Shown: positions 10,555 through 31,300 of the stretch, piece after piece
Layout: each line of letters starts with the position of its first letter
Numbering within the stretch: the first letter of the stretch is position 1
Assembly: GCA_016714535.1 (NCBI GenBank)
Contig: JADKDR010000007.1
Coordinates: forward strand, 1,022-65,021
Direction: 5' to 3'
From: Bacteroidota bacterium
GTDB lineage: Bacteria > Bacteroidota > Bacteroidia > AKYH767-A > OLB10
Length of the DNA stretch: 64,000 nucleotides
The notes under the pieces: generated by a model
Told to the model about the DNA's origin: nothing
The model's input: the letters and a program-made list of their open reading frames with translations, nothing else
Databases searched by the model: none
Made by a program: the position numbers and the translations under genes

Positions 10555-10760
10555 AAAAATGTACTGAATCCAATGCCAACAATGAAGCCCATGTTGGACA
10601 ACATGCATCGACCGTAGTGTCGGTGGAACCTTTGCTGGATCCTGCAGTGAGTATGCCCTAACTGTTCGCAAAGGTGGTATCGAATTTTTGTTTTGAGGTT
10701 TGCGGGTTGCTATAGGAGATCGCGTAACTATGAGTGTATACTTAGTTGTGTTGTTTACAT
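10555..10760 (-). mobile_element. Repeat-family copy B (partial; 5' two-fifths of the plus-strand consensus)
   Basis: Aligns by eye with copies A and E: gtgtcggtggaa, ctgttcgcaa, gaatttttg, ggtttgcgggttgctatag, taactatgagtgtatac. Starts ~22 nt after the stop of the S41 pseudogene. The strand given is that of the transposase relic present in fuller copies. Confidence 0.5.
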
Positions 10761-11005
10761 AAGTAATGTTTTTGTCTCTCATACTCTATTAATAACAAAA
10801 ACAAATGAAGACCCTAAAGCGACTCAGGTTTATGAATCCACAAAATGTTTATCTATATTTTACAGAAAATAGTTTTCGCGTTTATTTTCAATACTTTTGT
10901 TGCGCAATGAAAAGTACATGCGTAATTGGAAAGGCCCCTTTTTATTAATTATCAGCCATAATTGCGCTCTGAACAAACAGCATTACCGTTTAAAATTGAC
11001 AAGCT

Positions 11006-11566
11006 ATGTATTCACTTTACGAACGAACTCCTGACGCGACACAATTGCGACTAAAGTTTAAAGAGCATATAAAACTTGCAGGATGTAATTGGGGTATAAT
11101 TCCTAACCTTCTTGCTGACAAACTAAAACCTACAGACAATCCTCCAATCGGTTGGACACTTGATGTATCGGAGTATTACAATAAAAATAACGAATCAATT
11201 ATCATTGATATCACACCTAAAAATAAAACAGCTGAAGTTTTTTTATGTGAACTGGACAAGGTAATTGGTTTTACTTATGACGCGTGGACACCGATAATGT
11301 ATCGTTTAAATATTTTATTTAACGGCATTCAATCTAATGGAATTGATAAAATTTCTTTTGTTTATCTTGACAAGACAGAAGCAATTTATACAATGTTATA
11401 TTTATATGGCTCTTTTAAAAATGGAGAACTGGTCGGCACTTGGAATTATCCAGGGCCAAGTCCAACAAATGCACTTCTGTTATGGAGCGAATCGTTGACT
11501 TTCTTCACACAACAAGTAAGTTTCTTTGACCGTGACTTTCTTAAAGAAAACATCAAAACAATTTAA
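11006..11566 (+). CDS. Hypothetical protein (no recognisable domain)
   Basis: Clean 186-aa ORF with ATG start. No motif I can assign. Confidence 0.45.
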   Translation: MYSLYERTPDATQLRLKFKEHIKLAGCNWGIIPNLLADKLKPTDNPPIGWTLDVSEYYNKNNESIIIDITPKNKTAEVFLCELDKVIGFTYDAWTPIMYRLNILFNGIQSNGIDKISFVYLDKTEAIYTMLYLYGSFKNGELVGTWNYPGPSPTNALLLWSESLTFFTQQVSFFDRDFLKENIKTI

Positions 11567-11587
11567 CAACTCTAAAACTATTTCAAT

Positions 11588-11763
11588 ATGATAGTGGAAT
11601 TATCAGACAGAGTTATCGTTGAGCAAAATGGTTCTCAAATGAAGTATGAGAAAAAATGCGAGAAGTATGGATGGTTGACAACTCAGAATATTTAGGAAGA
11701 GCTCCGAATAAAGGTGCAATTCTAAAATCGACTTTATCTTGTCCGAAATGTAGAACCATTTAA
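11588..11763 (+). pseudogene. Possible decayed small zinc-ribbon-like ORF
   Basis: ATG 11588 opens MIVELSDRVIVEQNGSQMKYEKKCEKYGWLTTQNI*. A second frame continues GRAPNKGAILKSTLSCPKCRTI*. The C-x2-C at the end and a single Cys earlier hint at a broken zinc ribbon. Weak. Confidence 0.25.
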
Positions 11764-11816
11764 AAATTACAGATGTAAGGAACTTGAAACTTATTGATTT
11801 GTGGCGAAAGTATAAA

Positions 11817-12195
11817 GGCAGATATCAGACAAGACTTCGTGCCATGCGAGGCACAAGATCCCGTTGTATAGGGATTACACTGCCTGCCCCGACCATTGTG
11901 TCGGTGGAATCTTCGAAGGTGCTTGTGATGAATATTCCCGCACTGTTCGCAAGTGATGTGCAGAAATTTTTGCTATGTGGTTTGTTGGTTGCTATAGTTA
12001 GGCAAGCAACTATTGCTGTTTATGTGTTGGCGCTTTCAGTAATTCAAAATAACATACCAAGTATTACTTCTTCAAATTTCAATTTTACTAAATCGAGCTT
12101 ACATACAAAAGCATCAATAAAGCGTACAACATTTTCAACATCGATATTGCAATCTAAACTTGATATTTCCATTTGATTACTCGAAATCGAAAACT
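11817..12195 (-). mobile_element. Repeat-family copy A (with intact 42-codon transposase-N-terminus mini-ORF on the minus strand, 12044..12172)
   Basis: Shares ggcagatatcagacaag (end motif), a hairpin at 11835-11857, ctgttcgcaa, caactattgctgtttatgtgttgg, ttcaaatttcaattttactaaatcgag, atcaataaagcgtacaac and tgcaatctaaacttgatatttccat with the other copies. The minus-strand translation is MEISSLDCNIDVENVVRFIDAFVCKLDLVKLKFEE. Confidence 0.6.
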
Positions 12196-12332
12196 TCTTT
12201 GAGCTTACAACCGTATACGTCACCATTTGTAATAATGCTAACTTTGAACTGATTGCAACAAGCGAACAGATAAAAACATAACTTTGACGACTTGGACAAA
12301 ACTAAAATTATATGTGAATAAGCAAACAGAAT

Positions 12333-14324
12333 ATGAAAAAACTATTTCTCACCATCCTCACTTTTCAATTTACACTATTGAGTGTTCACTCTCAAGACCC
12401 CCAGCTCGTTGACTCTTTAGAAACTGCGCTCAAAAACCACAACGCCCGCAAGCCGGAGTTGAAGATTAAATCACCTTCGCAATACGATACCACAGCAGCT
12501 AATATTTTAATTAAACTCTCCATTGCCTTTTGGAACAGTAACCCCGACAAGGCAATGGACTATGCCAATCAATGTTTGGCATTATCAGAACAAATAGGTT
12601 ATGAAAAAGGAATAGGCAATGCTTATAATAGTTTGGGTACTATCAATAATATGAAAGGAGATTATCTACCTGCTCTTGAATTTTATAAAAAAGCATTGAA
12701 GGTTAGGGAACAAACCGGGGATAAAAGAAGCATAGCAGCTTCTTATAACAACATCGGCCTTGTTTATACTGCCCGGGGCGATTTCCCCGTAGCGCTGAAA
12801 AATCTTTTTACCTGTTTGAAAATAAGTGAAGAAATAGGGGATAAAAAAAACATTTCATCTTCTTATATAAACATCGGAAACATATATACTAAACAGGGCA
12901 ATAAACCGGAAGCGCTCAAAAATTATTTTGCCGCTTTAAAAATAGTTAAAGAAATAGGGTATAAAAGAGGCATTGCAGGTGCTTATGACGGCATCGGTAT
13001 TATTTATAGGAACCAGGGCAATTACCCCGAAGCGCTGAAAAATCATTTTGCCTCTTTAAAAACGAGGGAAGAAATGGGGGACCAACAAGGGATTGCATAT
13101 TCTTATAGCAACATAGGTGAGGTTTATGCCCTTCAGGGCAATTATCCCGAAGCTCTAAAAAATTATTTTGCATATTTAAAAATAAGTGAAGAAATGGAGG
13201 ATAAAAACAGCATTGCATATTCATTTGTCAATATTGGAAATGTTTATACGAAACAGAATAAATATAGCGAGGCTTCTGACTTTTTGAATAAAGGTTTGTC
13301 TCTTTCAAAAGGGATTGGGAATTTGCAATCCATTCAAGAAAGTTATGAAGGATTGGCGTCATTGGATAGTGCACAAGGTAATTTTAATAAAGCATTGGAG
13401 CATTATAAACTTTATATCATCTATCGAGACAGTATTGCGAATACAGAAAACGCTAAGAAAACAGTGGCACTGCAAATGAACTACGATTTCGGCAAAAAGC
13501 AAGATTCACTTAATGTGGTGCAGGCAGGTAAAGACATGCTTGCACAAAAAGAATTGCAGAAACAAAAACTCGTTCGCAACGGATTTATTGGTGGCTTTGC
13601 CATAGTGTTGCTTTTTGCAGGTGTGTTTTTCAGACAACGCAATAAAACCAAAAAAGAAAAACTAAAAGCAGAAGAAGAAAGAAAGCGAAGCGAAGATTTA
13701 TTGCTCAACATTCTCCCTGCCGAAGTAGCCGAAGAAATAAAAGCAACAGGTACAGCCAAAGCAAAAGCGTTTACAATGGTAACGGTTATGTTTACTGACT
13801 TCAAGGACTTCACCACCGTAAGCGAAAAAGTAAGTGCCGAATTATTGGTGGAAGAAATACATGCTTGTTTCAGTGCATTTGATAACATCATAAATAAAAA
13901 TAAAATAGAAAAAATAAAAACCATTGGAGATGCCTATATGTGTGCAGGCGGATTACCCGTATCCAATTACACCCATGCTACAGATATGCTACAAGCAGCC
14001 TTTGAAATAAGAGACTATATGCTGCAACGCAAAAAGGAAAAAGAAGCAAGAGGAGAAATTTCTTTTGTATTGAGAATTGGTATTCACACCGGTCCGGTTG
14101 TAGCGGGAATAGTTGGAGTAAAAAAATTCGCTTATGACATTTGGGGCGATACAGTAAACATTGCTTCTCGCATGGAATCAAGTGGTGAAGCAGGAAAAGT
14201 AAACATCAGCGGCAGCACTTATGAATTGGTGAAAGATAAATTCAATTGTATTCATCGTGGAAAAATTGAAGCAAAGAATAAGGGGGAGATTGATATGTAT
14301 TTTGTAGAGCGCATTCCAATTTAA
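12333..14324 (+). CDS. TPR-repeat sensor fused through one TM helix to a class III adenylate/guanylate cyclase domain
   Basis: Signal peptide. About eight 40-aa TPR-like units (GNYPEALKNxFAxLK...). TM segment GFIGGFAIVLLFAGVFF. Cyclase domain motifs VTVMFTDFKDFT, KTIGDAYMCAGG and YDIWGDTVNIASRMES. Confidence 0.8.
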   Translation: MKKLFLTILTFQFTLLSVHSQDPQLVDSLETALKNHNARKPELKIKSPSQYDTTAANILIKLSIAFWNSNPDKAMDYANQCLALSEQIGYEKGIGNAYNSLGTINNMKGDYLPALEFYKKALKVREQTGDKRSIAASYNNIGLVYTARGDFPVALKNLFTCLKISEEIGDKKNISSSYINIGNIYTKQGNKPEALKNYFAALKIVKEIGYKRGIAGAYDGIGIIYRNQGNYPEALKNHFASLKTREEMGDQQGIAYSYSNIGEVYALQGNYPEALKNYFAYLKISEEMEDKNSIAYSFVNIGNVYTKQNKYSEASDFLNKGLSLSKGIGNLQSIQESYEGLASLDSAQGNFNKALEHYKLYIIYRDSIANTENAKKTVALQMNYDFGKKQDSLNVVQAGKDMLAQKELQKQKLVRNGFIGGFAIVLLFAGVFFRQRNKTKKEKLKAEEERKRSEDLLLNILPAEVAEEIKATGTAKAKAFTMVTVMFTDFKDFTTVSEKVSAELLVEEIHACFSAFDNIINKNKIEKIKTIGDAYMCAGGLPVSNYTHATDMLQAAFEIRDYMLQRKKEKEARGEISFVLRIGIHTGPVVAGIVGVKKFAYDIWGDTVNIASRMESSGEAGKVNISGSTYELVKDKFNCIHRGKIEAKNKGEIDMYFVERIPI

Positions 14325-14445
14325 TCGGGATGCCCAAAATGATGACTATGAAACGTACCGGCACGGAAACTTTCTTGTAATATAATTTATGTAAATCATG
14401 TTTATAAAACATGATTTGCATAAATATAAAAGTTATACTTTCACG

Positions 14446-15601
14446 ATGAAAATTAAAAGAGAAGTACAATCTCATCTGATATAACTATCAAAAACTTTCA
14501 GGGCAGTGGCAGTTGTTGGTAAACGGCAGAGTGGCAAGTCAACATTGGTGAAGGCATGTTTTCAGGACGAACCCAATCTTTCATTTGAAAACATCACCAC
14601 GATTAATCAATTTAAAAATGACCCTGAGCTTTTTATTCACCGTTACCATGAGGGCTGCATCATAGATGAGGTTCAAAGAGCGCCTGAAATATTTTCCTAT
14701 TTGCAAACAGAAATTGATAAGTCAAATAAAAAAGGTAGATTTATTCTAACAGGTTCTAGCAATTTCACACTCGTGCAATCGGTAACACAAACATTTGCAG
14801 GCAGGATGGTGTTTTTAGATTTATTGCCTTTGAGTATGGGGAAAATAAATTCTTCAAAAAACGATATGTACAAAAACAAGTAGGAGCAATTTGTTTGGAG
14901 AGGTGGATACCCTGAACCAGCGCAACTAAAAAGCAACCTGAATAACTAGTTTGACGCTTACTTGCGAACTTATGTAGAGCGCGACATCAGGCAATTGAAA
15001 ATGATTGACAACATTCCTGCTTATTAACGTCTCATTTATTTATGTGCGGGAAGAGTTGGGCAGCAGTTAGATTTTGCAAATGAAGTGGTGTAAATGCTAC
15101 CACAGTGCATAGCTGGCTTGATGCTTTTCAAAAAATTATGTAATCTATTTTCTCAAATCATATTTCAATTGGTTTAATAAACGAGTTATTAAAGCGCCCA
15201 AATTATATTTTAATGACACTGGCTTGGCATGCTGGCTTTTATCCATTCATAAGCCTGACCAAATTGACACAGTGAGTTTATACAAAGGCGCATTGTTTGA
15301 AAATTTTGTGATTAACGAAATGATAAAATATCGTTTCAATAGAGGACTAAAAAATAACCTCTATTATTTCAGAGACAGCAATGCCAATGAAGTAGATGTG
15401 ATTATTGATAACGGAAAAGAACTCATTGGCGTAGAAATTATATCGGCAAGAACACTGGCAAACGATTTTTTTAAAGGACTTGACTACTGGAAAAAACTAT
15501 CAGGTCAAAAAAAGAGTTTGTTATTTTATACCGGCTTCGATGAATTTAAATACAGTAACGGAAATCAGGTAATTAATTGGAAGAATATTGCGGGCATTTA
15601 G
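14446..15601 (+). pseudogene. AAA-family ATPase with DUF4143-type C-terminus (COG1373-like), heavily decayed
   Basis: ATG 14446 then in-frame TAA at 14482-14484 (MKIKREVQSHLI*LSKTFRAVAVVGKRQSGKSTL, Walker A). Family-typical pieces (WRGGYPEP, YLRTYVERDIRQL, CAGRVGQQLDF, KLYFNDTGLACWLL-like) lie in different frames with stops between 14884 and 15223. The C-terminal piece is 15224..15601. Confidence 0.7.
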
Positions 15602-15659
15602 CGGTAAAAATAAATTTAGTAATGCTTCTGTTATTTTTTCTCTTAAAGAAACGTGTTTA

Positions 15660-15757
15660 TATTGGCTGGAGATACATTCAATTGCAATTATCGCTGAAAA
15701 ATTCAAGCGAAAAATAAAGGGGAGATTAATATGTATTTAGTTGAGAACAAAATGTAA
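15660..15757 (+). pseudogene. Relic of the last ~30 codons of a second adenylate-cyclase paralog
   Basis: ttcaattgcaattatcgctgaaaaattcaagcgaaaaataaaggggagattaatatgtatttagttgag closely matches the 3' end of the intact cyclase (ttcaattgtattcatcgtggaaaaattgaagcaaagaataagggggagattgatatgtattttgtagag, 14250-14320). The relic has TGA where the intact gene has GGA. Confidence 0.55.
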
Positions 15758-16064
15758 TAACATTTTGGGCGAGATCTCGATTTTTCATTAGGATTGAAGC
15801 AATTTCATAGGATGAATTGCACATCTGATATCCTGCCCTAAAGAGAAAGAAAGGCTTTATTACAAGTTTTCACAACTTTTCAATCATCATTTCTTTGAGG
15901 AAAAAAGCGAGTGCGCTTCTTTCCTCTAACTTCTTTTAATTTATATCAGTCAGATTGTGAAAAAATATCTATTCATGTTCTTTATATCCAACCAACTTTA
16001 CGAAAAGTTTTTTGTTTAGGAGATTGTCGGAAGATGAATTAAAGTATTTTCACAGGCTGAGGTT
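15757..16064 (-). mobile_element. Repeat-family copy H (internally deleted or degenerate; both end motifs recognisable)
   Basis: Begins taataacattttgggcg (compare copy F gttaacattttgtcggc and copy D gctaacatttagccg) directly at the stop of the cyclase relic. Ends ttttcacaggctgaggtt (16047-16064), 17 of 18 identical to the right end ttttcacaggctgacgtt of copies C and E. Confidence 0.4.
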
Positions 16065-16118
16065 ATGGACAAGTTAAAAGGGGCCTAATAGCTATTTAAC
16101 AATTGAGCATTTAAATTT

Positions 16119-17543
16119 ATGAAAATTCTACTCACGGGAGTAACTGGATATATAGCACAAAGGCTATTGCCTGTTTTATTAAAAAGCGGGCATGAGGTTG
16201 TCTGTTGCGTGAGAGACATTAATAGATTTAATATTAATAAATATGCTACTTCAAACATCTCGGTAATAGAAGCCGATTTTCTAAATAAAGAAAGTTTGAA
16301 ACTTATTCCCAATGCTATTGATTTGGCCTATTACCTTATACATTCAATGTCAACCCAAAGTGGCGATTTTAGAAGTCTGGAAGAAGTATGTGCAACAAAT
16401 TTTCGAAATTGCATTGAACATACAAATGCTAAACAAGTTATTTATTTGAGTGGTATTAGTAATGCTGAAGAATTATCAAAACATTTATCATCAAGAAAAA
16501 ATGTGGAGTCTACCTTATCAAGCACCAACTATGCACTCACTACACTCAAGGCAGGAATTATAGTAGGTTCTGGAAGTGCCTCTTTTGAAATTATTCGAGA
16601 TCTGGTTGAAAAATTACCTTTTATGATTACACCACGTTGGCTAAATACTAAATGTCAGCCTATAGCTATTCGCAATGTAATTGAGTTTTTAGTTGGCGTA
16701 ATTGCCCAAACTGAAACCTATAACCAAAACTACGATATTGGTGGGCCTGACATTTTAACTTATAAGGAAATGCTGTTGCGCTTTGCTAAAGTTAGAAGAT
16801 TAAAAAGACGAATTATTATTGTTCCTGTAATGACTCCAAGAATTTCATCATACTGGCTATATTTTGTTACGTCCACTTCCTATGCATTGGCTAAAAATTT
16901 AGTAAACAGCATGAAAGTTGAAGTGATTTGCAAACCCAATAATTTATCTACCACACTTGGCATTACGCTTATTGATTATGAAAAAGCAATACAATTAGCT
17001 TTTGATAAAATAGAGCAAAATCAAGTGCTTTCCAGTTGGAAAGATGCACAAACAAGTGAAATATTTAAAGAAGGTTTTTCCAAATTTATTGAAGTTCCTA
17101 TTAACGGCTGCTTTAAAGACATTCGGACACATGAACTAGAAAACACCACTAGTTCATTAGAGAAAATATGGCGCATTGGAGGGAAAACAGGTTGGTATTA
17201 CGGAACCTGGCTTTGGGAAATAAGAGGGTTTATAGATCAGATTTTTGGTGGTGTTGGTATGCGAAGAGGCAGAAAAAGTGATACCGAATTAAACACGGGC
17301 GATACACTTGATTTTTGGCGTGTAATGATTGCCAATAAAGAAGAGAAACGGTTACTGTTGTATGCCGAAATGAAACTACCCGGTGAAGGTTGGTTAGAAT
17401 TTAAAATCAATAAAAATAATATCCTTACACAAACAGCAACGTTCCGACCGATTGGGTTGCTGGGAAGATTTTATTGGTATTCTGTTTTGCCATTTCATGG
17501 ATTGATTTTTAAAGGAATGATAAATAAACTTGCTGTAAGATAA
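16119..17543 (+). CDS. NAD(P)-binding SDR/NmrA-like protein fused to a DUF2867-like C-terminal domain
   Basis: N-terminal Rossmann motif MKILLTGVTGYIAQRL. The long C-terminal extension (GWYYGTWLWEIRGFIDQIFGGVGMRRGR) is as I recall it from DUF2867 fusions. Confidence 0.65.
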   Translation: MKILLTGVTGYIAQRLLPVLLKSGHEVVCCVRDINRFNINKYATSNISVIEADFLNKESLKLIPNAIDLAYYLIHSMSTQSGDFRSLEEVCATNFRNCIEHTNAKQVIYLSGISNAEELSKHLSSRKNVESTLSSTNYALTTLKAGIIVGSGSASFEIIRDLVEKLPFMITPRWLNTKCQPIAIRNVIEFLVGVIAQTETYNQNYDIGGPDILTYKEMLLRFAKVRRLKRRIIIVPVMTPRISSYWLYFVTSTSYALAKNLVNSMKVEVICKPNNLSTTLGITLIDYEKAIQLAFDKIEQNQVLSSWKDAQTSEIFKEGFSKFIEVPINGCFKDIRTHELENTTSSLEKIWRIGGKTGWYYGTWLWEIRGFIDQIFGGVGMRRGRKSDTELNTGDTLDFWRVMIANKEEKRLLLYAEMKLPGEGWLEFKINKNNILTQTATFRPIGLLGRFYWYSVLPFHGLIFKGMINKLAVR

Positions 17544-17734
17544 ACAGAGAAGTGAAAAAAAATAAAATCTATATATTACAGCACGTTTGCAATAGGCGAA
17601 GTTTTCCTGATGAAAAATCGGGAAAGGCAGTGCTCCGAAGACCCCGCATTATTGCGGGATGACGAAAAAATAGCCTATTACAAAGCTGCATATTGTTAGA
17701 AGATTTGTTGACTAAAATATAACAAAATAAAATT

Positions 17735-19231
17735 ATGAATATGAAATATAAAGCCATTCTTTTTACACTAATACTATCACTAGTATTTTCAAATAAATCA
17801 AAGTCGCAATCCATACCAAGTTCAAAAACCTTTACGTCTATAGAACTGCTTAAAGACTTTGAAGTATTGAAAGGCGTTTTACAAAATTATCATCCAGGGC
17901 TTTACAGGTTTCAAGACAGCACAACGGTGGCAAAGCATTTTGATAATCTAGAGCAGCAGTTGAAACAAGACTTAACACTTGCTGAGGCTTACTTAGTGTT
18001 TTCCAGGTTTTCGGCAAGCTTAAAATGCGGACATACTTTCTGTAGCTTTTACAATCAGAGTGGTTCCACTAGAGATAGTCTTTTCAATAAAAAAGATAAA
18101 GTTCCGTTTAATTTTTTCCTGTTTGATAAAAGAATGTTTGTTGAAAAAAATGTTTCAAACAATGAAGAACTAAAGGAAGGATCTGAAATTTTAGAAATTA
18201 ATAATGTGCCTGTTGCTACTATTATTGATACGTTAATACAATATGTGAAGGGCGATGGAAATAATAATCTCAAAAGACTAAATGACCTGAATCTTTCGGG
18301 GCTTGGAAAGTTTGAAGCCTTTGATATTTTTTATCCATTAGTATTCCCACCTATTAATAATTCTTATTCCCTTAAAGTTAAAGGACCTGACAACGCGAGT
18401 ACCTTGACAATTAATGTTAATCCTATTAGTCGTGCTGAACGTTTTGGACTAATTGAAAATAAATATGGAAAACAGCCTTCAACTTTAGATGATTTATGGA
18501 GTTTCAAAATATTAAATAATGAAACCGGCTATTTAAAAATTGGCACTTTTGTAACCAATAAATTAACCATTGACTGGAAAAAATTTTTAAATAATGCATT
18601 TGATGAATTGGCTGAAAAAAAAATTCAAAATTTAATTATTGATATACGCGGAAACGAAGGTGGTAATGATGAAGTAAATCTTGTGCTTGGAAATAAGTTA
18701 GCTAAAAAGCAGATTGAATTTCCTGCATTTAAAGAACTGCTTCGGTATGAAAAAGTTTCTGATGAATTTCGCCCTTACCTAAATACCTGGGACAAGAGTT
18801 TTTATAACAGAAGCGGACAAGTAATAAAACAAGAAAATGGCTTTTATACCTGGAAAAAAAATAGAGGCAACTCAGTTATAAAGAAAAATAACAATGCTTT
18901 TCAAGGAAACACCTATTTACTTGTGGACGCAGCCAATAGTTCGGCAACCTTTTTCCTCACGGCTGGCTTAAAGCAAAACAAGATTGCTACTATAGTTGGT
19001 TCTGAAACAGGAGGTAATCTAAAAGGAACCAATGGAGGTCAACTGTTTTTTCTTTGGCTACCCAATTCCAAAATAGAAATTGATGTTCCGCTGATAGGAT
19101 ACTACCCATTAACAGAACAACCAGATAAGGGCATAAATCCAGATATTGAAGTTGTGTTGACAATTTCAGATATTTTTTCCGGAAAGGATAAGGTCTTAGA
19201 TAAAGCAATAGAATTAATTAAGGCAAAATAA
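17735..19231 (+). CDS. Peptidase S41 family protein (paralog 3)
   Basis: Signal peptide. LIIDIRGNEGGND, SSATFFL and GSETGGN motifs. Collinear with 7389..8846. Confidence 0.7.
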   Translation: MNMKYKAILFTLILSLVFSNKSKSQSIPSSKTFTSIELLKDFEVLKGVLQNYHPGLYRFQDSTTVAKHFDNLEQQLKQDLTLAEAYLVFSRFSASLKCGHTFCSFYNQSGSTRDSLFNKKDKVPFNFFLFDKRMFVEKNVSNNEELKEGSEILEINNVPVATIIDTLIQYVKGDGNNNLKRLNDLNLSGLGKFEAFDIFYPLVFPPINNSYSLKVKGPDNASTLTINVNPISRAERFGLIENKYGKQPSTLDDLWSFKILNNETGYLKIGTFVTNKLTIDWKKFLNNAFDELAEKKIQNLIIDIRGNEGGNDEVNLVLGNKLAKKQIEFPAFKELLRYEKVSDEFRPYLNTWDKSFYNRSGQVIKQENGFYTWKKNRGNSVIKKNNNAFQGNTYLLVDAANSSATFFLTAGLKQNKIATIVGSETGGNLKGTNGGQLFFLWLPNSKIEIDVPLIGYYPLTEQPDKGINPDIEVVLTISDIFSGKDKVLDKAIELIKAK

Positions 19232-19235: not shown

Positions 19236-19676
19236 ACATCAGCTAAGTTAACATTTTGTCGGCTATACAAAACCCCATTCGAATGCAGCAAACTAAGATG
19301 TTTACGTATAGACAGCTTTCAGCAACACGAGCCGCGGTGCGGTTAGTATTCACTATAGCCACTTAAGTATATAAGTATACTTGTATCGGAGTGCGGTTTG
19401 GATTATACTGTTTGTAACAGGGGGTGTATAGGTTACTTAGAAAGCAATCAGCAACTAATGCTTGTATGCAAGGAATCAATAAAGCGTACAACATTATTTG
19501 CTTCTATGCTGCAATCTAAAATTGATATTGCTATTCTGGTTATCCAGCTAGCTAGTATGTGCTTCATAATTATTTTTGCTTAGTCAGGTCTATCATGTTG
19601 TTGTAATTTCTATTCTTGCTGCATGCTGGTAACGGGTAGCTTTGGGCATTTGGTTTTTTACAGTTGCCCTTTATTG
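19236..19676 (-). mobile_element. Repeat-family copy F (near full length, degenerate right end)
   Basis: Starts ~5 nt after the S41 stop. Shares ttcagcaacacgagcc, ttgtatcggagtgcggtttgg, tttgtaacagggggtgtatagg, atcaataaagcgtacaac, tgcaatctaaaattgatatt, gttgttgtaatttc and tagctttgggcatttggtttttta with the other copies. Confidence 0.6.
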
Positions 19677-19752
19677 GCATCCGAAAAAAGCAATCAACTG
19701 TAACAATATCAATATGAAATCATCCTTTCAATAACACCTACAACATTTGCCA

Positions 19753-23600: not shown

Positions 23601-23909
23601 GAACCGCCCTTGTACTTAGTAAATCCTGAACAATCCTATATTTCTTATGGAAAAGGGGCTATTGCACTCTATACACTAAGTGAATTTATTGGTGAAGAAA
23701 AACTAAATAAAGCTTTAAAAGAATACTTGGATAAAGTAAAATTCCAACCACCGCCCTATACAACATCTATAGAAATGCTTGATTATTTAAAAAAAGCAAC
23801 ACCAGACAGTTTACAATATTTAATTGTAGATATGTTTGAAAAAAATGATAAAGAAAAGACGCTGTCGCACTTTGATGAAATAGTTAAGCGTAAGTCTTCT
23901 AGCTACTAG
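20640..23909 (+). CDS. Fusion protein: polytopic ABC-2-type permease region (about 590 aa) plus M1-family zinc metallopeptidase domain
   Basis: The N-terminal ~590 aa are many hydrophobic helices. The C-terminal ~500 aa contain the gluzincin motif HELSHQWWGN followed by ITESMAEYI (HExxH-x18-E). The start lies 5 nt after the ATPase stop, which suggests one operon. Confidence 0.75.
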   Translation: MFFAIFKFEIKYWLRNWSFYIYLSIFFLLALLSMAGAAGAFGEGSAATENMANSPMSIYGFTIFFNKFLLFLIPAIVGNTIYKDYKSNFNSILHTYPFSKKDYLLAKFTSAFLIVCLIAFSVELGLILGTKLPTVNPKQLLPFNTMTYVQSFCIYLIPNLLLFSIVVFSIVLLSRNIYNGFISIVLIWLLKEIGVRLLGADGIASMVIDPFGESAVQYFTRYWNLAEQNILSLPSQPIILINRLVWLFIGLTIFIATYRWFSFSQNPFSFGLKSKKIESVTKDNFRSILKIDLIKLKFDFSFFQQIKTSWKLSQTDFIFITRNGAFISIVIAGILFIAALLLQMNPQTDTKILPVTWQILGFPVFFFSFLIQILTFLYAGILVHRAKNSHISDLISVTAVPNWVLLFSKFLALVKMQLTLLSLIMIVGIAIQINSNYYHFEIGHYLFDLFAIHLIGFMIWAFLSLFVQSMFSNIYLNLFLLILIALGISQLPSLGIENFVLRFNDSPNANFYLKYSDMSGYGNSLIPYFLYKLYWFVFGMFLFSITLLVWQRERTNSILERFKIAKKRFVGKLAFISIVLMTSFLCFGFYLFQKENNPENKILSEKNETNLLTQFQNKYKKYEHTSQPRITSVFIKLDIFPETNSFIAKGNYTLINKSEHTIDTLLIKKGFDEITTLYFDTNATLIEEDTIFKFCIYKLDNGIAPNDSINLNFTIKNQKNTLLTQNSNILKNGTFLKSDIFPRLGYFAETEKKMPNDSTAFANHYQGNDADLVNFEAIVSTSPKQIAITSGNLIKEWSEDGRRYFHYKMDIPFKFVFGFNSGEFAVLKEIYKGVDLRVYYHPKHIYNIEQMMDGLKASLDYNVFHFGPYQHKQVHIIEFSRSEGSYATTAGNCIQTSEIRFINDTRNLKEGGIDLSFYVAAHELSHQWWGNQVSPADALGATMITESMAEYITAKIYEKKYGKQGALKFLKIQRIRYLSGRANETEQEPPLYLVNPEQSYISYGKGAIALYTLSEFIGEEKLNKALKEYLDKVKFQPPPYTTSIEMLDYLKKATPDSLQYLIVDMFEKNDKEKTLSHFDEIVKRKSSSY

Positions 23910-24338
23910 TACTAAGACATCTTTACGAAACCCCCACTCTACTTAAGCAACACAAAGGACTTTTGCACAGATCGCATTCAGCGACATGAGCCTCTATGCG
24001 GCTAGCATGCACTTCAGCTTTTTAATTATATAGGTGTATTTGTATCGGATTGCTTTTGGGTATATAATATTTGTAACAGTGGCTGTATATGTTTCACTTA
24101 AAGCACCTACCTAGCCTATATTACGTGCGAGGCATCAATAAAGCGTACAACAATTTTTGCACTAGTGCTGCAATCTAAGCTTTATATCTCCATCAGACTT
24201 CGGCAGCATGCAAGTAAATGATTCAATATTAATTCCTTTTTTTTGAATTATGCCATAAGTGTCGTTGTAATTTTTATTTTTAACACAGGTTATTAACGTG
24301 TAGCTTTGGGCTGTTGGGTTTTTTCACAGGCTGACGTT
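23905..24338 (-). mobile_element. Repeat-family copy C (near full length)
   Basis: Begins at or over the TAG stop (23907-23909) of the M1 fusion gene. Shares ttcagcgacatgagcc, ttgtatcggattgcttttggg, tttgtaacagtggctgtatatg, atcaataaagcgtacaac and tgccataagtgtcgttgtaatt. Its last 31 nt gggctgttgggttttttcacaggctgacgtt (24308-24338) are identical to copy E 28820-28850. Confidence 0.65.
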
Positions 24339-24720
24339 ACCAGCAAGCGTAAAAATCGACACAAAAACCATAAACTTGATTGTTAGACATTAAATCTTTA
24401 GAAATAAATACAGACCAACGGGCTGACTTTTTGCCGACACGACAGCCGAGCGCTTCATGTTTTAATTTTTCCACGACCGCAGAAAAAAAAATCTAATTTT
24501 AGCCGACCAACAATTGCCACATTTGGCTTTGCCCCAACCACTAGCCGACAAGTAAAACTATTTAAAATTTCAGTTTTTCGCTGACCTTATTTTTTAAAAC
24601 TATTTGCAATTTATTTATTACTAAATAATAAATATGTTTTATGGATTATATAATTAATATAAATAAATGTTTATGAATAAAATTTCTCAATTTTGCAACG
24701 TCAAACAAAAAAATAAAAAA

Positions 24721-25476: not shown

Positions 25477-25508
25477 TATCTTATCACTAATCAAATAATC
25501 AAACAAGA

Positions 25509-26474
25509 ATGAATTTCAATTTACTCATAGAGAATCTAACCAATCCGGCACTATTGTTCTTTGTGCTGGGCGTTATAGCAGTTTATGTAAAAAGCGATTT
25601 GGAGATACCACCTAATTCATCAAAATTTATTTCTCTCTACCTATTATTCTCCATAGGTTTTAAAGGGGGACAAGAACTGTCGCATGAAACATTTACAATT
25701 GAAATCGGATTTTCTATGTTATTTGGTATCTGTATTTCAGCAATCATACCATTATATACTTTTTTTATACTTAAAAGAAAACTGAATGTGTTCGATGCAG
25801 GAGCTATTGCCGCAGCTTATGGCTCTGTAAGTGCAGTTACTTTTGTGACGGCTGTCTCCTATTTAGAAAGTCAACAGATGAGTCTTCATGGACACATGGT
25901 AGCAATAATGGCATTGATGGAATCTCCAGCTATTATAATAGGTTTAGTATTAATTTCTTTATTCAATAAAGATGAATCAACAGCAAAAATTAAAATTCCA
26001 GCGGTGATAAAACATTCCTTGACAAATGGCAGTGTTTTATTAATTCTGGGAAGTTTGGTAATAGGCTTTATGGCAAATGCAAAACAAGCTGAAGGTATTA
26101 AACCATTTACCAATGACTTATTTAAAGGTTTCCTTGCTATTTTTCTATTAGATATGGGGATTACAAGTGGTAGAAAGTTAAAATCATTCTTCTCTTATGG
26201 AATATTTCCGATGGCTTTTGCCATCATTATTCCGTTAGTAAATGGATGTCTTTTTGCCATATTAAGTGGATTTGTAACAACAGATATCACCAACAGATTT
26301 ATCTTTGCTGTCCTAGCTGCAAGTGCATCTTACATAGCAGTGCCAGCCGCAATGAAGATAACAGTTCCTAAAGCGGACCCTGGACTATATCTTCCGATGG
26401 CTCTTGCGGTAACTTTTCCTATAAATATAACGGTTGGTATGCCCATATATTTCCTAATAGTGCAACATTTCTAG
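25509..26474 (+). CDS. SbtA-like sodium-dependent bicarbonate transport family permease (DUF897/Sbt_1 type)
   Basis: About 10 TM helices. The N-terminal PALLFFVLGVIAVYVKSDLEIP...LLFSIGFKGG matches my recollection of the family signature. Adjacent to a carbonic anhydrase. Confidence 0.65.
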   Translation: MNFNLLIENLTNPALLFFVLGVIAVYVKSDLEIPPNSSKFISLYLLFSIGFKGGQELSHETFTIEIGFSMLFGICISAIIPLYTFFILKRKLNVFDAGAIAAAYGSVSAVTFVTAVSYLESQQMSLHGHMVAIMALMESPAIIIGLVLISLFNKDESTAKIKIPAVIKHSLTNGSVLLILGSLVIGFMANAKQAEGIKPFTNDLFKGFLAIFLLDMGITSGRKLKSFFSYGIFPMAFAIIIPLVNGCLFAILSGFVTTDITNRFIFAVLAASASYIAVPAAMKITVPKADPGLYLPMALAVTFPINITVGMPIYFLIVQHF

Positions 26475-26552
26475 TAAAGCTGAAAATAGCAAACAATATG
26501 TTCTTCAAGACAGAATAAAATGTTACTTAAGTATAAACTGGGCGACAAACAA

Positions 26553-27074
26553 AACGCCAGCCGCTAACATTTAGCCGTATAGACGAAAGCCCCCGGGCGA
26601 GTCGAATACGAGGGGCTTTTGTCTATTAGGCCTGCCCTGTATTCTCTAACGGGGTGTTAAGCGACACCGGCATGGGTTGTCGTCATAATTGAGTGGTTTT
26701 GTTGGGGGGGGAGCGTGCTAAATTGCTTAGGTGTAATAGTAAGCAATTTTTGTTTTTTGCTTTTGTTTAACTATGGCTGTATACGATTTGTGGCGTTTTT
26801 AGTTCTTTAATATATCAGGCCAACATTCCTCTTTCAAATTTCAATTTCACGAAATCGAGTTTACAACCAAAAGCATCGATAAAGCGTACAACATTTTCAG
26901 TATCGATGTTGCAATCTAAACTTGATATTTCCATCTGTTGCCGGCAGTGCTTTGCTATGTGATGTGTATTTATTTTTTTTGAAGGTGTGTCAACAGTGTC
27001 GCTGCAATTTTTATTTTTACCACTTGTTATTAACGTGCAGCCTTGGGCAAGTTTGTTTTTCAGAGTCTGACGTT
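26553..27074 (-). mobile_element. Repeat-family copy D (most complete: both terminal inverted repeats plus intact 39-codon transposase-N-terminus mini-ORF 26815..26934)
   Basis: The left end is aacgccagccgctaaca. The reverse complement of the right end is aacgtcagactctgaaa. Hairpin at 26586-26619. Contains taactatggctgtatacg, ttcaaatttcaatttcacgaaatcgag, atcgataaagcgtacaac and tgcaatctaaacttgatatttccat. The minus-strand translation is MEISSLDCNIDTENVVRFIDAFGCKLDFVKLKFERGMLA*. Confidence 0.65.
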
Positions 27075-27142
27075 GTGGGCTACCAATAGGTGGCTGTACT
27101 AACCCGAAAAGTTGTGCAAGAAACAAATGACAAACAACGCAG

Positions 27143-28285
27143 ATGAAACAAAATTATTTGATTTGGCTTTTATTCTTTGTAGCAGAAATGGCCACATCGT
27201 TTCTTTATGGACAAAACAGACCTAACAGAATTCCATTTTATGAAAGTGGTATGTATGGAATTTGTGATTCTAATTTCAATATAATAGTCCATTCCAAGTT
27301 TTTGGCAACTGGAACTTATGAATTCGGAGTTATAAAAGTTGGAATGTAAGAAAAAGATAATATCATTTTCAACTTTCTTGACTTGAATGGTAAAGAACTA
27401 TTTAAAGATTATATGTATGGTTTGCCAAGTGATTTTCACGAAGGTTATGCAACCATTCAAAATGGTAATGGACAAAGTGGAATAATTGACACTTTAGGTA
27501 ATTTGGTTTTGCCATTTAAATTTGTTAGAGTAAATTCTTTTCAAGAGCAACTTGCAACTGTTGCTTGTGACTTTTGGAGTTGGGGAGTTGTGAATTTGAA
27601 AGGCGAAGTAATTATTCCCTGCACCTATGACGACATAGGTTTCTACTTTAAAAATGGATTGAATCGTGTTGGAAAAAAGCAAGAGGCGGCTGATTGTAAA
27701 TATGCTTTGATAGATACTTTAGGGAAATTAGTTACCCCATTTCTCTATGATGAATTAGGTGAAGAACATTATTCATCATTGACAATTTACAAAAACATTA
27801 TGCCAGCGAAAAAAAATGGAAAGTGGGGGTTCATCAATACAGAAGGTAAGGAAACTATTCCATTTCAATATAAATTTGTATCACAGTTTAGAAACGATAA
27901 TGCGGTTGCAGAAGTGGACACTCTATATGGAATGCTCAATTTAAAAGGTGATACTCTTGTTCCATTTACTTATGAATTCATTGACATCATGAGTGATTCA
28001 ATCTATCCAGCAAGAAGAAATAACAAATATGGATTTATCAATTCTCAAAATGAAATTATTATCCCTTTTGAGTATGAATATGTAGCCGGCTTCAATGAAG
28101 GGTTAGGGTTTGCATGTAAGAACGGATGTTGTGGTTTTATTAATTATTCTAATCAGGTAATTATTCCATTCCAGTTTGAAGAAGAAGGATACGGCCCAAA
28201 TAAATTTTGGGACGGCTTAGCTTGGTTAAACTATAATGGTGTTTGGTGCTACATTGACATGTCAGGTAAAATATATAAGCGTTAA
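27143..28285 (+). pseudogene. WG-repeat (KWG-type) protein with signal peptide, interrupted by an in-frame TAA
   Basis: Track ORFs 27143..27349 and 27383..28285 share one frame and are split by TAA 27347-27349 (...GVIKVGM*EKDNIIFNFLDLNGKELF...). Repeated units include KNGKWGFINTEGKETIPFQY, NNKYGFINSQNEIIIPFEY and CCGFINYSNQVIIPFQF. Confidence 0.6.
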
Positions 28286-28371
28286 AAGGAAATGTCAGAA
28301 ACAAGAAAAGACGACAATGCATTGCACAACCTTTGGTGCGAGCCTCCAATAGTTGTACTCCGAATGAATAG

Positions 28372-28850
28372 AACGGCAGCAGATAACATACAGGACTTCG
28401 TGGGGCACGAAGTGCCCACCATGACAACCACGTTGCACAGAACCTTCGGTGCAGTCCCGCAATATGTATTCAGCGCTGTTCGCAATGCTGTGTAGAAATT
28501 TTCGCTATGGGCTTGGCGGTAGTTGACGAGGGTATGTACGGGTGACCATATACGATTAGCAGAACTTTTAGCAATTAGAAATATCACAACTATTAAAACT
28601 GTTACAAATTTTAATTCCATTAAATCGAGCTTGCAAGCAAATGCATCAATAAAGCGTACAACATTTTCTGTATTGATGTTGCAATCTAAACTTGATATTT
28701 ATATTTGATTACTGCAAACTGCGTGTTTGTGATGAATAAATTTTTTCTTTTTTGCTAAGGTTTGCCATAAGTGTTGTTGTAATTATTAATTTTACCTCAT
28801 GCTGTTAACATGCAACTGCGGGCTGTTGGGTTTTTTCACAGGCTGACGTT
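28372..28850 (-). mobile_element. Repeat-family copy E (full length, transposase relic decayed); an extra partial fragment lies just upstream at ~28290-28371
   Basis: The left end is aacggcagcagataaca. Perfect 8-bp hairpin at 28395-28413. Contains ctgttcgcaa, taaatcgagcttgcaagc, atcaataaagcgtacaac, tgcaatctaaacttgatattt and tgccataagtgttgttgtaatt. The right-end 31-mer is identical to copy C. The relic start ATG GAA has become ATA TAA. 28318-28348 (ttgcacaacctttggtgcgagcc) duplicates 28431-28457 (ttgcacagaaccttcggtgcagtcc). Confidence 0.65.
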
Positions 28851-28900
28851 AGGCGCGAGATTAACAGAAGACAAACATCATCACAAATTCAGAGACACGA

Positions 28901-29704
28901 ATGGAATTATTGCCAATTAAAGAAATAAAAATTAATCAAGCCAAAATTGATAAAATCGACCATCTTGTAAAGTCAATTTATAGACTAATTATTTATAGTC
29001 GACATCATTTGGATGACGACCTTTTAGACACATATTTGACAAGTGTACAAGAACTCCAAGAACTTCTTAGTTTGAAAAATGCACAAATGGAAGCCCAAAA
29101 CGAAGAGGAAGCAAAAGAATATTTAAAAAACTTAAAAATATCGTTAGACTTTGTAATTGAGGAGATAATAACACACAATAATTTTGAAAAAGAATTACAA
29201 CTTTTTCAACTTCTTAGATTAGTTTCTCCTGAAACAAATGCAATTCATCCTAATCGTTACAGACAAACATTAGTTCAGGTTGGAGGACATCTTTGTCCAG
29301 ATAAGGAGGATGTTCCTGTGTTAGTATCCGAGTTATTTTACCAAATGCAAAACATAGCCAACCCCATTATAAGAGCAATTTATTTTCATCACGAGTTAAT
29401 TAGAATACATCCATTTGCAGACGGAAATGGTCGAGTAACAAGAATTGCGAAAAACTGGATGTTGATGTTTGATTTATATCCACCAATTTTTATCAATGAC
29501 GCTCCGCAGAAAAAAGAATACATTACCACACTTTCAAAAAGTTTTAAAGATCTGAATAATTCACCAAAAAAGTGGAACGAACACACTGAAGCATTTTTTG
29601 AACAAGAGCTTGACCGCTTATTAGTGAATGCGAATTTACTTTATGATACGGTAAATAGAATTGGATTAGAGAGAGAAAAATCAAGTAAAAGTAATAGCAA
29701 ATGA
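28901..29704 (+). CDS. Fic/DOC family protein (canonical AMPylation-type active-site motif)
   Basis: HPFADGNGRVTR matches HxFx(D/E)GNGRxxR. The preceding helices are typical of the Fic core. Confidence 0.8.
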   Translation: MELLPIKEIKINQAKIDKIDHLVKSIYRLIIYSRHHLDDDLLDTYLTSVQELQELLSLKNAQMEAQNEEEAKEYLKNLKISLDFVIEEIITHNNFEKELQLFQLLRLVSPETNAIHPNRYRQTLVQVGGHLCPDKEDVPVLVSELFYQMQNIANPIIRAIYFHHELIRIHPFADGNGRVTRIAKNWMLMFDLYPPIFINDAPQKKEYITTLSKSFKDLNNSPKKWNEHTEAFFEQELDRLLVNANLLYDTVNRIGLEREKSSKSNSK

Positions 29705-30204
29705 ACCCTTCAAAAATTCAAATTATAGAAACAGTTTTGGTATTAGTTGGTTACCTAACCAGCTACTTCGTAACAAAGACACTTATTAACAACACGCTTA
29801 AAAACACTCACTTGCAGCGAGGCAGAAGAAAAATAATTGTAAAAGCAGTACACCTTTTTTCTTTCATGATCTTAATAATTCTATTATCAGCAGTATGGGG
29901 CCTTGAACAAAGTGAAATCGCTGTTTTCGTTGGAACAATTTTAACCGCATTAGGTATTGCTTTTTTTGCTCAATGGTCATTACTTTCAAATGTTACTTCA
30001 AGCTTGTTATTGTTTTTTAACCATCCCATAAAGATTGGAGATAGAATAAAGGTATTAGATAAAGATTACCCATTTGAAGGAGAAGTCTCGGATTTGACCT
30101 CTTTTTTTGTACATCTTAAAACTGAAAGTGGAGAGATAATAACAATACCAAATTCACTATTATTGCAAAAATCTGTATCGATTTTTGAAAATAAAAAAGT
30201 TTAA
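29701..30204 (+). CDS. Small MscS-like mechanosensitive channel family protein
   Basis: Three TM helices followed by an MscS-type beta domain (IKIGDRIKVLDKDYPFEGEVSDLTSFFVHLKTESGEIITIPNSLLLQKSV). The ATG overlaps the Fic stop (ATGA, 29701-29704). Confidence 0.6.
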   Translation: MNPSKIQIIETVLVLVGYLTSYFVTKTLINNTLKNTHLQRGRRKIIVKAVHLFSFMILIILLSAVWGLEQSEIAVFVGTILTALGIAFFAQWSLLSNVTSSLLLFFNHPIKIGDRIKVLDKDYPFEGEVSDLTSFFVHLKTESGEIITIPNSLLLQKSVSIFENKKV

Positions 30205-30212
30205 ATAATACT

Positions 30213-30935
30213 ATGAGACAAGCATTTTCAATAATTATTATTCTTATACTATCAGCAAACAGAATGTATGCTCAAAACTTTGATTTAGGCAGTTGGAACA
30301 TCCTAAATTTAAAATACAACCATAGTGACAAACTCAGCTTTTTTGGAGAAGCACAACTACGTTCATTAAAATTTTACAGCAACTTTCACTATTACGAATA
30401 TAAGGGCGGTATTAACTACAAAGCTCACAAAAACATTAACCTGACCTTGGGTGCAGGTAGTTATCAAACCTACAAAGAAGGTGGCGATTTTGTTTTACCA
30501 AAAAACAATGACGAATTTAGGCTTTGGCCACAACTAATATTTTTTCAATCAATAGGGAAGTTGAAAATTGAACAACGCTATCGTGCAGAGTCTAGATTTA
30601 CAAGTAATGGCTATCGTAACCGTTTTCGTTACAGACTTGGCGTTTCTTATGCATTTGGAAAGGAGCGAAATAATTATAAACCTTTTCAAGTTAGTGCAAG
30701 TAACGAAATTTTTTTCACGGACAAGGAAGCATACTTTGAGAGAAACCGATTATTATTTGCGTTCAATTACAAACCTACAAAAGCAGCCGCTTTGCAGATT
30801 GGCTATTTACATCAGTTCGACTACAAAATAAATGATGAAACTGGTCGTGACTTTCTGGTAATAGGCTTTTACTTTGACATTTTCAGGAAATCAATTTCGA
30901 AAAAGGAGAACGATAATGAAATTAAAGACAATTAA
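30213..30935 (+). CDS. Predicted outer-membrane beta-barrel protein (DUF2490-like)
   Basis: Signal peptide MRQAFSIIIILILSANRMYAQ. Alternating amphipathic strands rich in Y/F/R. The family assignment is from memory only. Confidence 0.45.
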   Translation: MRQAFSIIIILILSANRMYAQNFDLGSWNILNLKYNHSDKLSFFGEAQLRSLKFYSNFHYYEYKGGINYKAHKNINLTLGAGSYQTYKEGGDFVLPKNNDEFRLWPQLIFFQSIGKLKIEQRYRAESRFTSNGYRNRFRYRLGVSYAFGKERNNYKPFQVSASNEIFFTDKEAYFERNRLLFAFNYKPTKAAALQIGYLHQFDYKINDETGRDFLVIGFYFDIFRKSISKKENDNEIKDN

Positions 30936-30943
30936 TTACGCAG

Positions 30944-31300
30944 ACCGCCAGCTGCTAACATTTAGTCATCTATTCATAACCCACAATCGAGTAAAACAAA
31001 CGAGGAGGTTTTCGTATATATAGTATTCAGCAACATGAGCCTCGATGCGCTTAGTATGAGCTGCAGCCTGTCGGGTGTATAGGTGCATTTATTTCGGAGT
31101 TTTGCGGGAAATTTAACGATTGCAACAGTAGGTATATACGTTGTTGGTTTATTACCTTTAAGAAAAGCATAAAGTAGCCCCTACCCGCTATTCATGTATT
31201 TTTTTTGAGTGTATTTGTTTTCCTTTTTGTTTTCAAGGTGAAGAGATTTTGCTATTGTTGGAGAGCTGCGGTTGCGCAATTCTTCTGCATATACTAATCG
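30944..31300 (-). mobile_element. Repeat-family copy G (transposase relic mostly deleted; right end degenerate)
   Basis: Starts 8 nt after the stop at 30935 with accgccagctgctaacatttag (compare copy D). Shares ttcagcaacatgagcc, atttcggagttttgcggg and ttgcaacagtaggtatatacgttgttgg. Then aaaagcataaagtag jumps to gctattcatgtattttttttgag (compare copy D gctatgtgatgtgtatttattttttttgaag). The end point is uncertain. Confidence 0.5.

Follow-up and report, generated by a model that had tools for sequence, protein, structure and literature searches.

We analysed a 64,000-nt stretch of contig JADKDR010000007.1 from a Bacteroidota bacterium (assembly GCA_016714535.1; hereafter the window), in which repeated DNA fills the gaps between the genes of a region spanning 10.5-31.3 kb. 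The window has a G+C content of 36.5% and carries an rRNA operon and several proteins with type IX secretion sorting tails, features that mark it as bacterial and Bacteroidota-like. A first-pass annotation had described eight co-oriented copies of one repeat here, lettered B, A, H, F, C, D, E and G in order along the stretch, which cut the region into seven gene modules; the genes include a TPR-cyclase, SDR/DUF2867 and S41 peptidase genes, an ABC transporter, a carbonic anhydrase with an SbtA permease and a WG-repeat protein. Self-BLAST and repeat finding recovered repeated DNA in all eight of the named gaps, in every case in the + orientation. The statement that all genes of the region lie on the + strand holds for sizeable, non-overlapping open reading frames (ORFs), as the minus-strand ORFs that can be listed between 10.5 and 31.3 kb overlap larger + ORFs or sit within the repeats. 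Minus-strand housekeeping genes (NUDIX and acyl-CoA dehydrogenase) do begin after copy G. The modular layout of the ORFs also stands, except that the SDR/DUF2867 and S41 peptidase genes, previously counted as one module, are separated by a ninth site at 17566-17705. Pfam searches of all sizeable ORFs bore out that the window encodes no recombinase and no intact transposase, although it does contain a transposase relic, described below.

The repeats are not copies of a single unit. They share different segments with one another, at 67-82% identity: one 5' module is common to copies B, A and E; a second 5' module is common to F, C and G and, partly or more distantly, to D; and a central/3' module of about 210-250 nt is common to A, F, C, D and E. 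Copy H keeps just the final 22-35 nt of the element, and copies B and G have no segment in common. Each repeat starts shortly after the stop codon of a + strand gene, as had been described, with a range of 0-88 nt rather than 0-85 nt. Where the 3' end of the element is recognisable, the next start codon (16119 after H, 19747 after F, 27143 after D and 28901 after E) follows within 50-85 nt, close to the 50-80 nt given before; copy C is the exception, at 329 nt. A scan of the window against Rfam returned rRNAs and tRNAs only, and the repeats match no known RNA family.

The central/3' module is the left end of an IS1182-family element. Its minus strand encodes MEISSLDCNIDxENVVRFIDAF, which corresponds to the N-terminus of the transposase of this family, and the window thus retains a transposase relic comprising only the first ~20-40 codons. 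These short minus-strand peptides are too short for Pfam, and the family was assigned through full-length copies in relatives. A 19-mer scan of the genome collection found many copies of the module in the metagenome-assembled genome (MAG) JADKFV01 ('Bacteroidetes bacterium Ribe_18-Q3-R11-54') and in two other Bacteroidales MAGs. A full-length parent element, which the first-pass annotation had proposed to look for in the source genome, exists in a relative: JADKFV contains four full-length copies of an insertion sequence (IS) of 1.76 kb, 95-98% identical to each other, which encode a transposase with DUF772 and DDE_Tnp_1_6/DDE_Tnp_1 domains (Pfam). A database protein that is 98% identical (P0001, 513 aa) scores 351 bits on the NCBIfam model NF033551, IS1182 family transposase, for which the cut-off is 270. 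The IS is bounded by terminal inverted repeats of 22 bp (left, AACGTCAGCCTGTGAAAAAACC; right, AACGTCAGGATGTGAAAAAACC).

Related loci L018 and L008 also contain intact miniature inverted-repeat transposable elements (MITEs) of this IS, 280-365 bp long and with both terminal repeats, in which IS positions 1-94 are joined to 1517-1761. Full IS copies and intact MITEs were found in the relatives only, not in the window. In the window, the left terminal repeat is perfect in copies C and E and mutated in D and H, and no right terminal repeat is recognisable in any copy; the window copies are therefore MITE remnants. The breakpoint of the internal deletion, 94|1517, is shared by the intact MITEs and by copies D, E and A, indicating that these three copies descend from one MITE ancestor rather than from the independent decay of full elements. 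We conclude firmly that the repeats consist of a hairpin-family site joined to a remnant of an IS1182-family MITE. The remnant also answers the argument that the elements exceed attC sites several-fold in length, as the surplus is the MITE or IS remnant inserted in an attC-like hairpin. MITEs had been set aside on the ground that eight of eight co-oriented copies would not be expected of random insertion; the elements are in part MITEs nonetheless, and their co-orientation would stem from site- and orientation-specific insertion, not from chance.

The relatives reveal where the element inserts. All four of the full-length IS copies adjoin an imperfect palindrome of ~125 nt on the side of the right terminal repeat, and these palindromes represent target DNA rather than part of the IS, because they are just 70-80% conserved between copies. 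Across the IS and MITE copies with both ends, 10 of 11 have such a palindrome at the right-repeat side; the exception, a full-length IS copy at L023 9910-11650 with no palindrome at its right end, lies in a housekeeping region. Unoccupied palindromes end in ...N-GTTA precisely at the point where the IS would start, and at occupied sites GTTA recurs directly after the left repeat. The insertion point is at the 3' base of the hairpin (the R' side, in attC terms), no more than about 2 nt away from GTT. It is always the right terminal repeat that adjoins the hairpin, whereas the left one points towards the next cassette, and the transposase gene always runs antisense to the cassettes. The junction is ambiguous to about 2 nt (possibly CG), with no longer target duplication. 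A co-oriented ORF follows within 350 nt after about 22 of the 26 copies in relatives. The identities of hairpin and MITE are not tightly coupled: between L006a and L006b those of the two parts are 0.89 and 0.62, respectively. A Mantel test for co-inheritance of hairpin and MITE gave r 0.42 (p about 0.15).

We aligned twelve hairpin sites from four MAGs, after rebuilding the occupied ones by removing the IS (alignment A2). These sites, which represent the first of two related sequence families, are imperfect palindromes of 100-145 nt, with (T)AACA invariant on the 5' side and GTTA nearly invariant on the 3' side. As single strands they fold into three helices around a variable middle of ~75 nt: the R box, which has 8 bp and takes in AAC/GTT, the L box with 9 bp and an inner stem of 6 bp. 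An arrangement of this kind, R''-L''...L'-R', is the anatomy described for the attC sites of integrons (PMC4889954). Pairing was found in 86% of alignment cells, with compensatory changes in 19 of 23 pairs; none of 500 shuffles matched this, and slid controls reached 28-40%. As the covariation of the R box takes in the reconstructed sites, the pairing partner of R'' is now found on the far side of the IS. The middle of A2 sites, nominally variable, contains two or three direct copies of (A/T)TTTGTG(C/G)T (for example, in L018 4191-4335), which is unusual for attC; this motif might be a protein-binding site.

A covariance model built from this alignment (R1) detected co-oriented arrays in four other MAGs and in contigs of JGI metagenomes. 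These arrays lie directly behind ORFs and include those of L024 (a Chitinophagales MAG), L015, L022, L008 and L030. When R1 was run on a class 1 integron, its top match was the aadA2 attC; the R boxes were in register, but the E value of 1.4 is not significant. In the window as in the related loci, the sites lie directly 3' of ORFs and co-oriented with them, and the next ORF begins soon after R'.

The related arrays also retain a footprint at the ends of their cassettes. The 7-12 bases that follow the GTT of one site are the exact reverse complement of the bases that precede the AAC of the next site, for example GTTAGGCGTA...TACGCCTAAC, GTTATGCGCA...TGCGCATAAC and GTTGGCGGTA...TACCGCCAAC. Exact complementarity over GTT+7 was seen in at least 10 cassettes of 0.4-1.7 kb from four MAGs, with a chance expectation of ~6e-5 per pair. 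This end complementarity is the trace of circular cassettes that were linearised at G|TT, a pattern that transposition cannot yield.

Within the window, the state of preservation differs greatly from one junction to the next (Table 1). Copy D contains the best-preserved hairpin, one of the second sequence family (type 2). Folded as DNA it reaches -24.6 kcal/mol (z-score -3.2; none of 200 shuffles did equally well), with TAAC paired to GTTA, and eight homologues occur in JADKFV at 78-95% identity, all conserved from TAAC on and preceded by a variable, cassette-specific RYYYAAC-like prefix. The left part of its MITE remnant encodes the transposase N-terminus on the minus strand and corresponds to IS positions 1517-1764 at 83% identity. 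Over 26562-27074, copy D is 90-95% identical to L018 324-833 in the JADKFV genome, where the genes have no DNA similarity to those of the window, which points to recent activity or transfer of the D composite, unlike the other, much older copies in the window. A metagenome scan with the D-type hairpin returned three short contigs only.

Copies F, C and G are homologues of the D hairpin at 67-70% identity. Copies B, A and E have a decayed hairpin whose arms resemble the first family by eye, with fold z-scores of -1.3 to -1.8 (-1.7 for copy B). Positions 10683-10740 of copy B match 11965-12022 of copy A; the L' arm of the A2 family, (C/A)TCGC(C)AA, has a homologue in the 3' arm of copy A, and the 3' part of copy A is 88-92% identical to JADKFV copies (90% over IS positions 1514-1621). 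In copy E, the left repeat, free of mismatches, lies at 28829-28850, and the left part is 79% identical to IS positions 1517-1759. The AAC/GTT triplets are present in D, E, G, F and the ninth site and mutated in A and C. The ninth site, which is unoccupied, ranks second among the R1 matches in the window (12.1 bits, E 0.76, not significant) and is the sole top match to cover the whole model without a large internal deletion; nhmmer gave it an E value of 0.017 on the intergenic set. Its arm sequences resemble those of the JADKFV family, and we judge these arms convincing despite the weak statistics. Apart from this weak match, sequence hidden Markov models built from the relatives found nothing significant in the window.

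Table 1. Hairpin sites, MITE remnants and a gene relic at the junctions of the region
Feature	Coordinates	Strand	Details
Copy B, degenerate hairpin module (A/E variant) and MITE right-end remnant, without the IS left end	10609..10740	+	73% identity to 11890-11997
Copy A, 5' part: degenerate attC-like hairpin and MITE right-end remnant	11890..12030	+	3' arm ...CTGTTCGCAA... conserved; AAC mutated
Copy A, 3' part: IS/MITE left fragment	12043..12177	+	Minus strand is the transposase N-terminus MEISSLDCNIDVENVVRFIDAF; cut off before the terminal inverted repeat
Junction H, relic of a cyclase gene 3' end, remains of an earlier cassette ORF	15670..15745	+	83% identity to 14234-14309 (end of the TPR-cyclase gene)
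Copy H, IS/MITE left terminal inverted repeat alone (reverse complement) and GTTA	16043..16066	+	AACCTCAGCCTGTGAAAATACT, 3 mismatches to the left repeat; 54 nt before the 16119 start
Ninth site, unoccupied attC-like palindrome (first family)	17566..17705	+	ACAGCACGTTTGCAATAGGC ... GCCTATTACAAAGCTGCATATTGTTAGAAG; between the SDR/DUF2867 and S41 peptidase genes
Copy F, 5' part: degenerate type-2 hairpin (TAAC ... GTTAGTA) and spacer common to C and G	19249..19434	+	70% identity to the segment from 23928 and to 30956-31142; alignment A3
Copy F, 3' part: MITE left part with decayed terminal repeat	19460..19682	+	70% identity, IS positions 1541-1768; about 65-85 nt before the 19747 start
Copy C, 5' part: degenerate type-2 hairpin	23901..24093	+	Over the permease-M1 stop codon; AAC mutated
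Copy C, 3' part: MITE left part with perfect terminal repeat	24132..24342	+	GGTTTTTTCACAGGCTGACG then GTTA; left repeat with 0 mismatches at 24317-24338; 74% identity, IS positions 1555-1765
Copy D, 5' part: best-preserved attC-like hairpin, type 2	26553..26665	+	R''-like GCCGCTAAC, long imperfect stem, GTTAAGCGAC
Copy D, 3' part: MITE remnant	26666..27076	+	Right-end piece 26768-26801 and left part 26835-27074; ends ...CTGACGTT, 68 nt before the 27143 ATG
Copy E, 5' part: decayed attC-like hairpin (A/B variant)	28372..28500	+	GCAGATAAC ... CTGTTCGCAATGCTGTG; fold z-score -1.8; homology to A2 consensus arms by eye
Copy E, 3' part: MITE remnant	28536..28852	+	Right-end piece 28536-28570 and left part 28605-28850; perfect terminal repeat and GTTA, 50 nt before the 28901 start
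Copy G, degenerate type-2 hairpin and F/C spacer, without the IS left part	30944..31142	+	ACCGCCAGCTGCTAAC...; last site before the minus-strand housekeeping genes

On balance, we think that the region between 10.5 and 31.3 kb is probably a fossil integron-type cassette array with no integrase in the window, in which most sites carry a decayed IS1182-family MITE. Clusters of attC sites without an integrase are known as CALIN (Cury et al. 2016, PMC4889954), and the window would be CALIN-like in this sense. The earlier intuition of a cassette array is supported, chiefly through the relatives, where these repeat families occur in arrays whose cassettes have boundaries of the integron type; in the window itself this signature is eroded, and the identification of the window as an integron cassette array, which we consider likely, draws more on sequence homology to those relatives than on the window itself. 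The array would have been built by integron-type recombination, as the arrays of the relatives suggest. Insertions of the IS or its MITEs would have split R' from the rest of the site by 0.3-0.5 kb, inactivating the sites and probably freezing the cassettes in place, and the array would then have decayed, leaving pseudogenes, mutated AAC triplets and cassette ends that are no longer complementary. The polarity of the array and its sites, combined with orientation-specific insertion, would explain why eight of eight copies are co-oriented. The lost complementarity, the split genes, the cyclase relic at junction H and the mutated AAC in copies A and C together indicate an old, immobilised array.

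Several results weigh against this interpretation. No integron integrase was found in the window (Pfam) or in the related loci examined, so that these are compatible with CALIN status only. R1 has no significant match in the window, and the hairpins of F, C and G fold no better than shuffles. At none of the window junctions was cassette-end complementarity detectable; only chance-level matches were seen. Even in the A2 sites, the L helix has regularly spaced 1x1 mismatches and no clear extrahelical bases of the kind that determine strand choice in attC sites. Several of the modules are large, multi-gene and operon-like (the ABC transporter at 4.2 kb; the carbonic anhydrase with SbtA), which is atypical of cassettes. 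Finally, the collections contain no close relative of the source genome: for the acyl-CoA dehydrogenase in the flank, the best homologue reaches 76% identity and comes from a locus without synteny to the window.

One 10-nt GTT...AAC inverse-complement pair does occur in the region, GTTCGCAAGT and ACTTGCGAAC, at 11945-11954 and 14960-14969. The former is the conserved 3' arm of copy A and the latter lies inside the decayed ATPase gene, 3 kb downstream. The pair is probably due to chance, as 15 such pairs were counted window-wide.

Tyrosine recombinases are encoded within the related arrays, and we considered two as the array integrase and rejected both. One is a 420-aa tyrosine recombinase fused to Hypoth_Ymh (TIGR02391), found at L024 11776-13044 (minus strand) and L030 ~10115-11383 (plus strand), with about 25 members in Bacteroidota metagenomes. 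This fusion is itself a cassette with matching ends in attC-like arrays, and in L024 it adjoins the IS. Its closest solved structure is VchIntIA. The protein is without the IntI-specific insertion, and Arg I and HxxR are missing by eye in an alignment with IntI1; the fusion is apparently inactive. The other candidate, from L035 and L036, accompanies an IS91-like element. There, an IS91-type Y2/zinc-finger transposase is preceded by a Xer/IntI-like tyrosine recombinase, antisense between attC-like sites (L035 326-2446, minus strand; L036 446-1144, plus strand). This recombinase, too, is without the IntI-specific insertion. The unit represents a second type of mobile element resident in the arrays.

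Alternatively, the region might be an ordinary chromosomal cluster with no integron history, in which a hairpin-targeting IS1182-family MITE inserted at terminator-like hairpins 3' of + strand genes; in some versions of this scenario the MITE has its own subterminal hairpin, the D-type composite is the mobile element and terminator polarity accounts for the co-orientation. IS1272 and TnSha1, of the same family, insert in terminator hairpins (PMC4923244), and the D hairpin, whose GC stem runs into TTTTGT, looks like an intrinsic terminator. Nine copies of the D-type composite, in two genomes, are conserved over 0.5 kb as one unit at 78-95% identity, the modules resemble normal operons, and the missing end complementarity in the window is what such a history would leave. 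We nevertheless regard insertion into terminators as a fairly unlikely explanation. The hairpins belong to repeat families rather than being gene-specific terminators, and unoccupied copies occur; at its 5' edge the composite has no terminal repeat but a variable box of RYYYAAC type; and hairpin and MITE identities are not closely coupled, as in the L006 pair. Consecutive composites in the relatives have inverse-complement flanks across a whole cassette, and transposition does not generate these. An integron-like system without a canonical IntI, in which the hairpin::MITE composite (TAAC...GTTA) is the working recombination site or the unit added to new cassettes, would explain how 0.5-kb composites stay 78-95% identical across cassettes and genomes with perfect end complementarity kept; we hold this to be improbable.

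The 250 nt conserved upstream of genes might instead have been kept for driving or regulating the downstream gene, as a mobile promoter or 5' leader. IS elements of Bacteroides activate cfiA, and the distance of 50-85 nt from the element to a co-oriented start in the window, like the co-oriented ORFs after ~22 of 26 copies in relatives, would fit such a role. Outward promoters are also known in attC-inserted elements, the group IIC-attC introns (PMC3001079). However, the outward Bacteroidetes -7 motif (TAnnTTTG) is absent from the last 130 nt of ~28 left ends, bar one chance case, and the conserved stretch is the left end of the IS, with the start of the transposase on the opposite strand. One deletion in the ancestral MITE explains why this stretch is constant in length, no Rfam family matches it, and nearness to the next ORF is expected anyway at a cassette boundary; a regulatory role is thus very unlikely as the reason for the repeats. 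We give hardly any credence to a build-up by IS-mediated co-integration or homologous recombination, in which translocatable units (an IS copy with adjacent DNA) are added beside an existing IS in the manner of IS26. Elements of the IS6 family, such as IS26, form arrays with directly repeated IS copies between modules, and the directly oriented IS-derived copies of the window resemble these. The IS here belongs to the IS1182 family, however, not to IS6; the copies are MITE derivatives with one common internal deletion, placed at a defined position in a separate hairpin repeat; and neither the unoccupied sites nor the cassette-end complementarity of the relatives is predicted by co-integration.

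The first-pass annotation could name no described system with this layout. Yet CALIN-type integron arrays, mobile elements that target attC and IS1182-family elements that target hairpins have all been described and together provide a framework. Integron attC sites are imperfect palindromes of 57-141 nt. Like integron attC sites and CALIN, the sites considered here are ~100-145-nt imperfect palindromes in which conserved AAC/GTT triplets and R and L helices enclose a variable middle; they lie directly after ORFs, co-oriented and with no integrase nearby, and in the relatives show G|TT end complementarity. Unlike integron attC sites, they have 1x1 mismatches and conserved (A/T)TTTGTG motifs in the middle, and most are split by a MITE; unlike typical cassettes, several window modules are multi-gene, up to 4.2 kb. 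Integrons are barely documented in Bacteroidota (PMC9024848). The IS1111-attC group and group IIC-attC introns likewise insert into attC site-specifically and in one orientation, producing longer inter-cassette spacers (PMC3001079, PMC11187229), whereas the element here is a DDE element of IS1182 type, rather than a DEDD element of the IS110/IS1111 kind or a retro-intron, with no guide RNA or reverse transcriptase; Rfam found no intron match in the window that would suggest membership of group IIC-attC.

Among hairpin-targeting elements, IS1272 and TnSha1 of staphylococci, which belong to the IS1182 family, target hairpins without target duplication (PMC4923244, PMC5678879). The element described here has the same transposase family, also targets hairpins, inserts at the stem base and leaves no clear target duplication. 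IS1272, in contrast, inserts into a range of terminator hairpins in both orientations and removes part of its target, whereas the present element occupies one hairpin family at one position and in one orientation, and short MITE derivatives dominate. A further parallel is offered by IS1202-family elements at Acinetobacter pdif sites, which keep one fixed orientation and are found within a few bases of a tyrosine-recombinase site at the boundary of mobile gene modules (PMC10132070). That target is a 28-bp XerC/D site, and the sites alternate in orientation (PMC10132070); here the target is a folded 130-nt palindrome, and the IS family and the logic of the modules differ.

Other features of the window concern its genes. 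Several genes are split into adjacent ORFs: those for the N- and C-terminal parts of MutL (52207-54041), a Porin_10 protein (46937-48741), the WG-repeat protein (27143-27349 with 27383-28285) and an AAA_14/DUF4143 ATPase (14506-15601). As MutL is a housekeeping protein and its gene is also split, some of the apparent pseudogenes in the window are possibly frameshifts of a long-read assembly rather than real decay. Three S41-peptidase paralogues are encoded at 7389-8846, 9298-10533 and 17735-19231, one of them inside the array, and the first and third retain residual DNA similarity (8205-8296 with 18581-18672, and 8668-8698 with 19059-19089). Positions 12589-13308, inside the TPR-cyclase gene, consist of a 120-nt periodic repeat in five copies of 61-74% identity; these are the TPR units of the protein and are unrelated to the repeats of the array.

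If our interpretation as a fossil cassette array is correct, the repeats should be annotated neither as a new system nor as a regulatory RNA. Integron-type arrays would then be common in uncultured Bacteroidota of activated sludge and soil (Chitinophagales-like MAGs), where they have scarcely been documented. DDE elements of the IS1182 family and their MITEs would represent a third, independent lineage of attC-targeting elements, after the IS1111-attC elements and the group IIC-attC introns. By stretching attC sites to about 0.5 kb, their insertions would hide such arrays from heuristics based on attC spacing. These insertions would also probably immobilise the cassettes, and in this way arrays could plausibly turn into fossil stretches of ordinary-looking chromosome.

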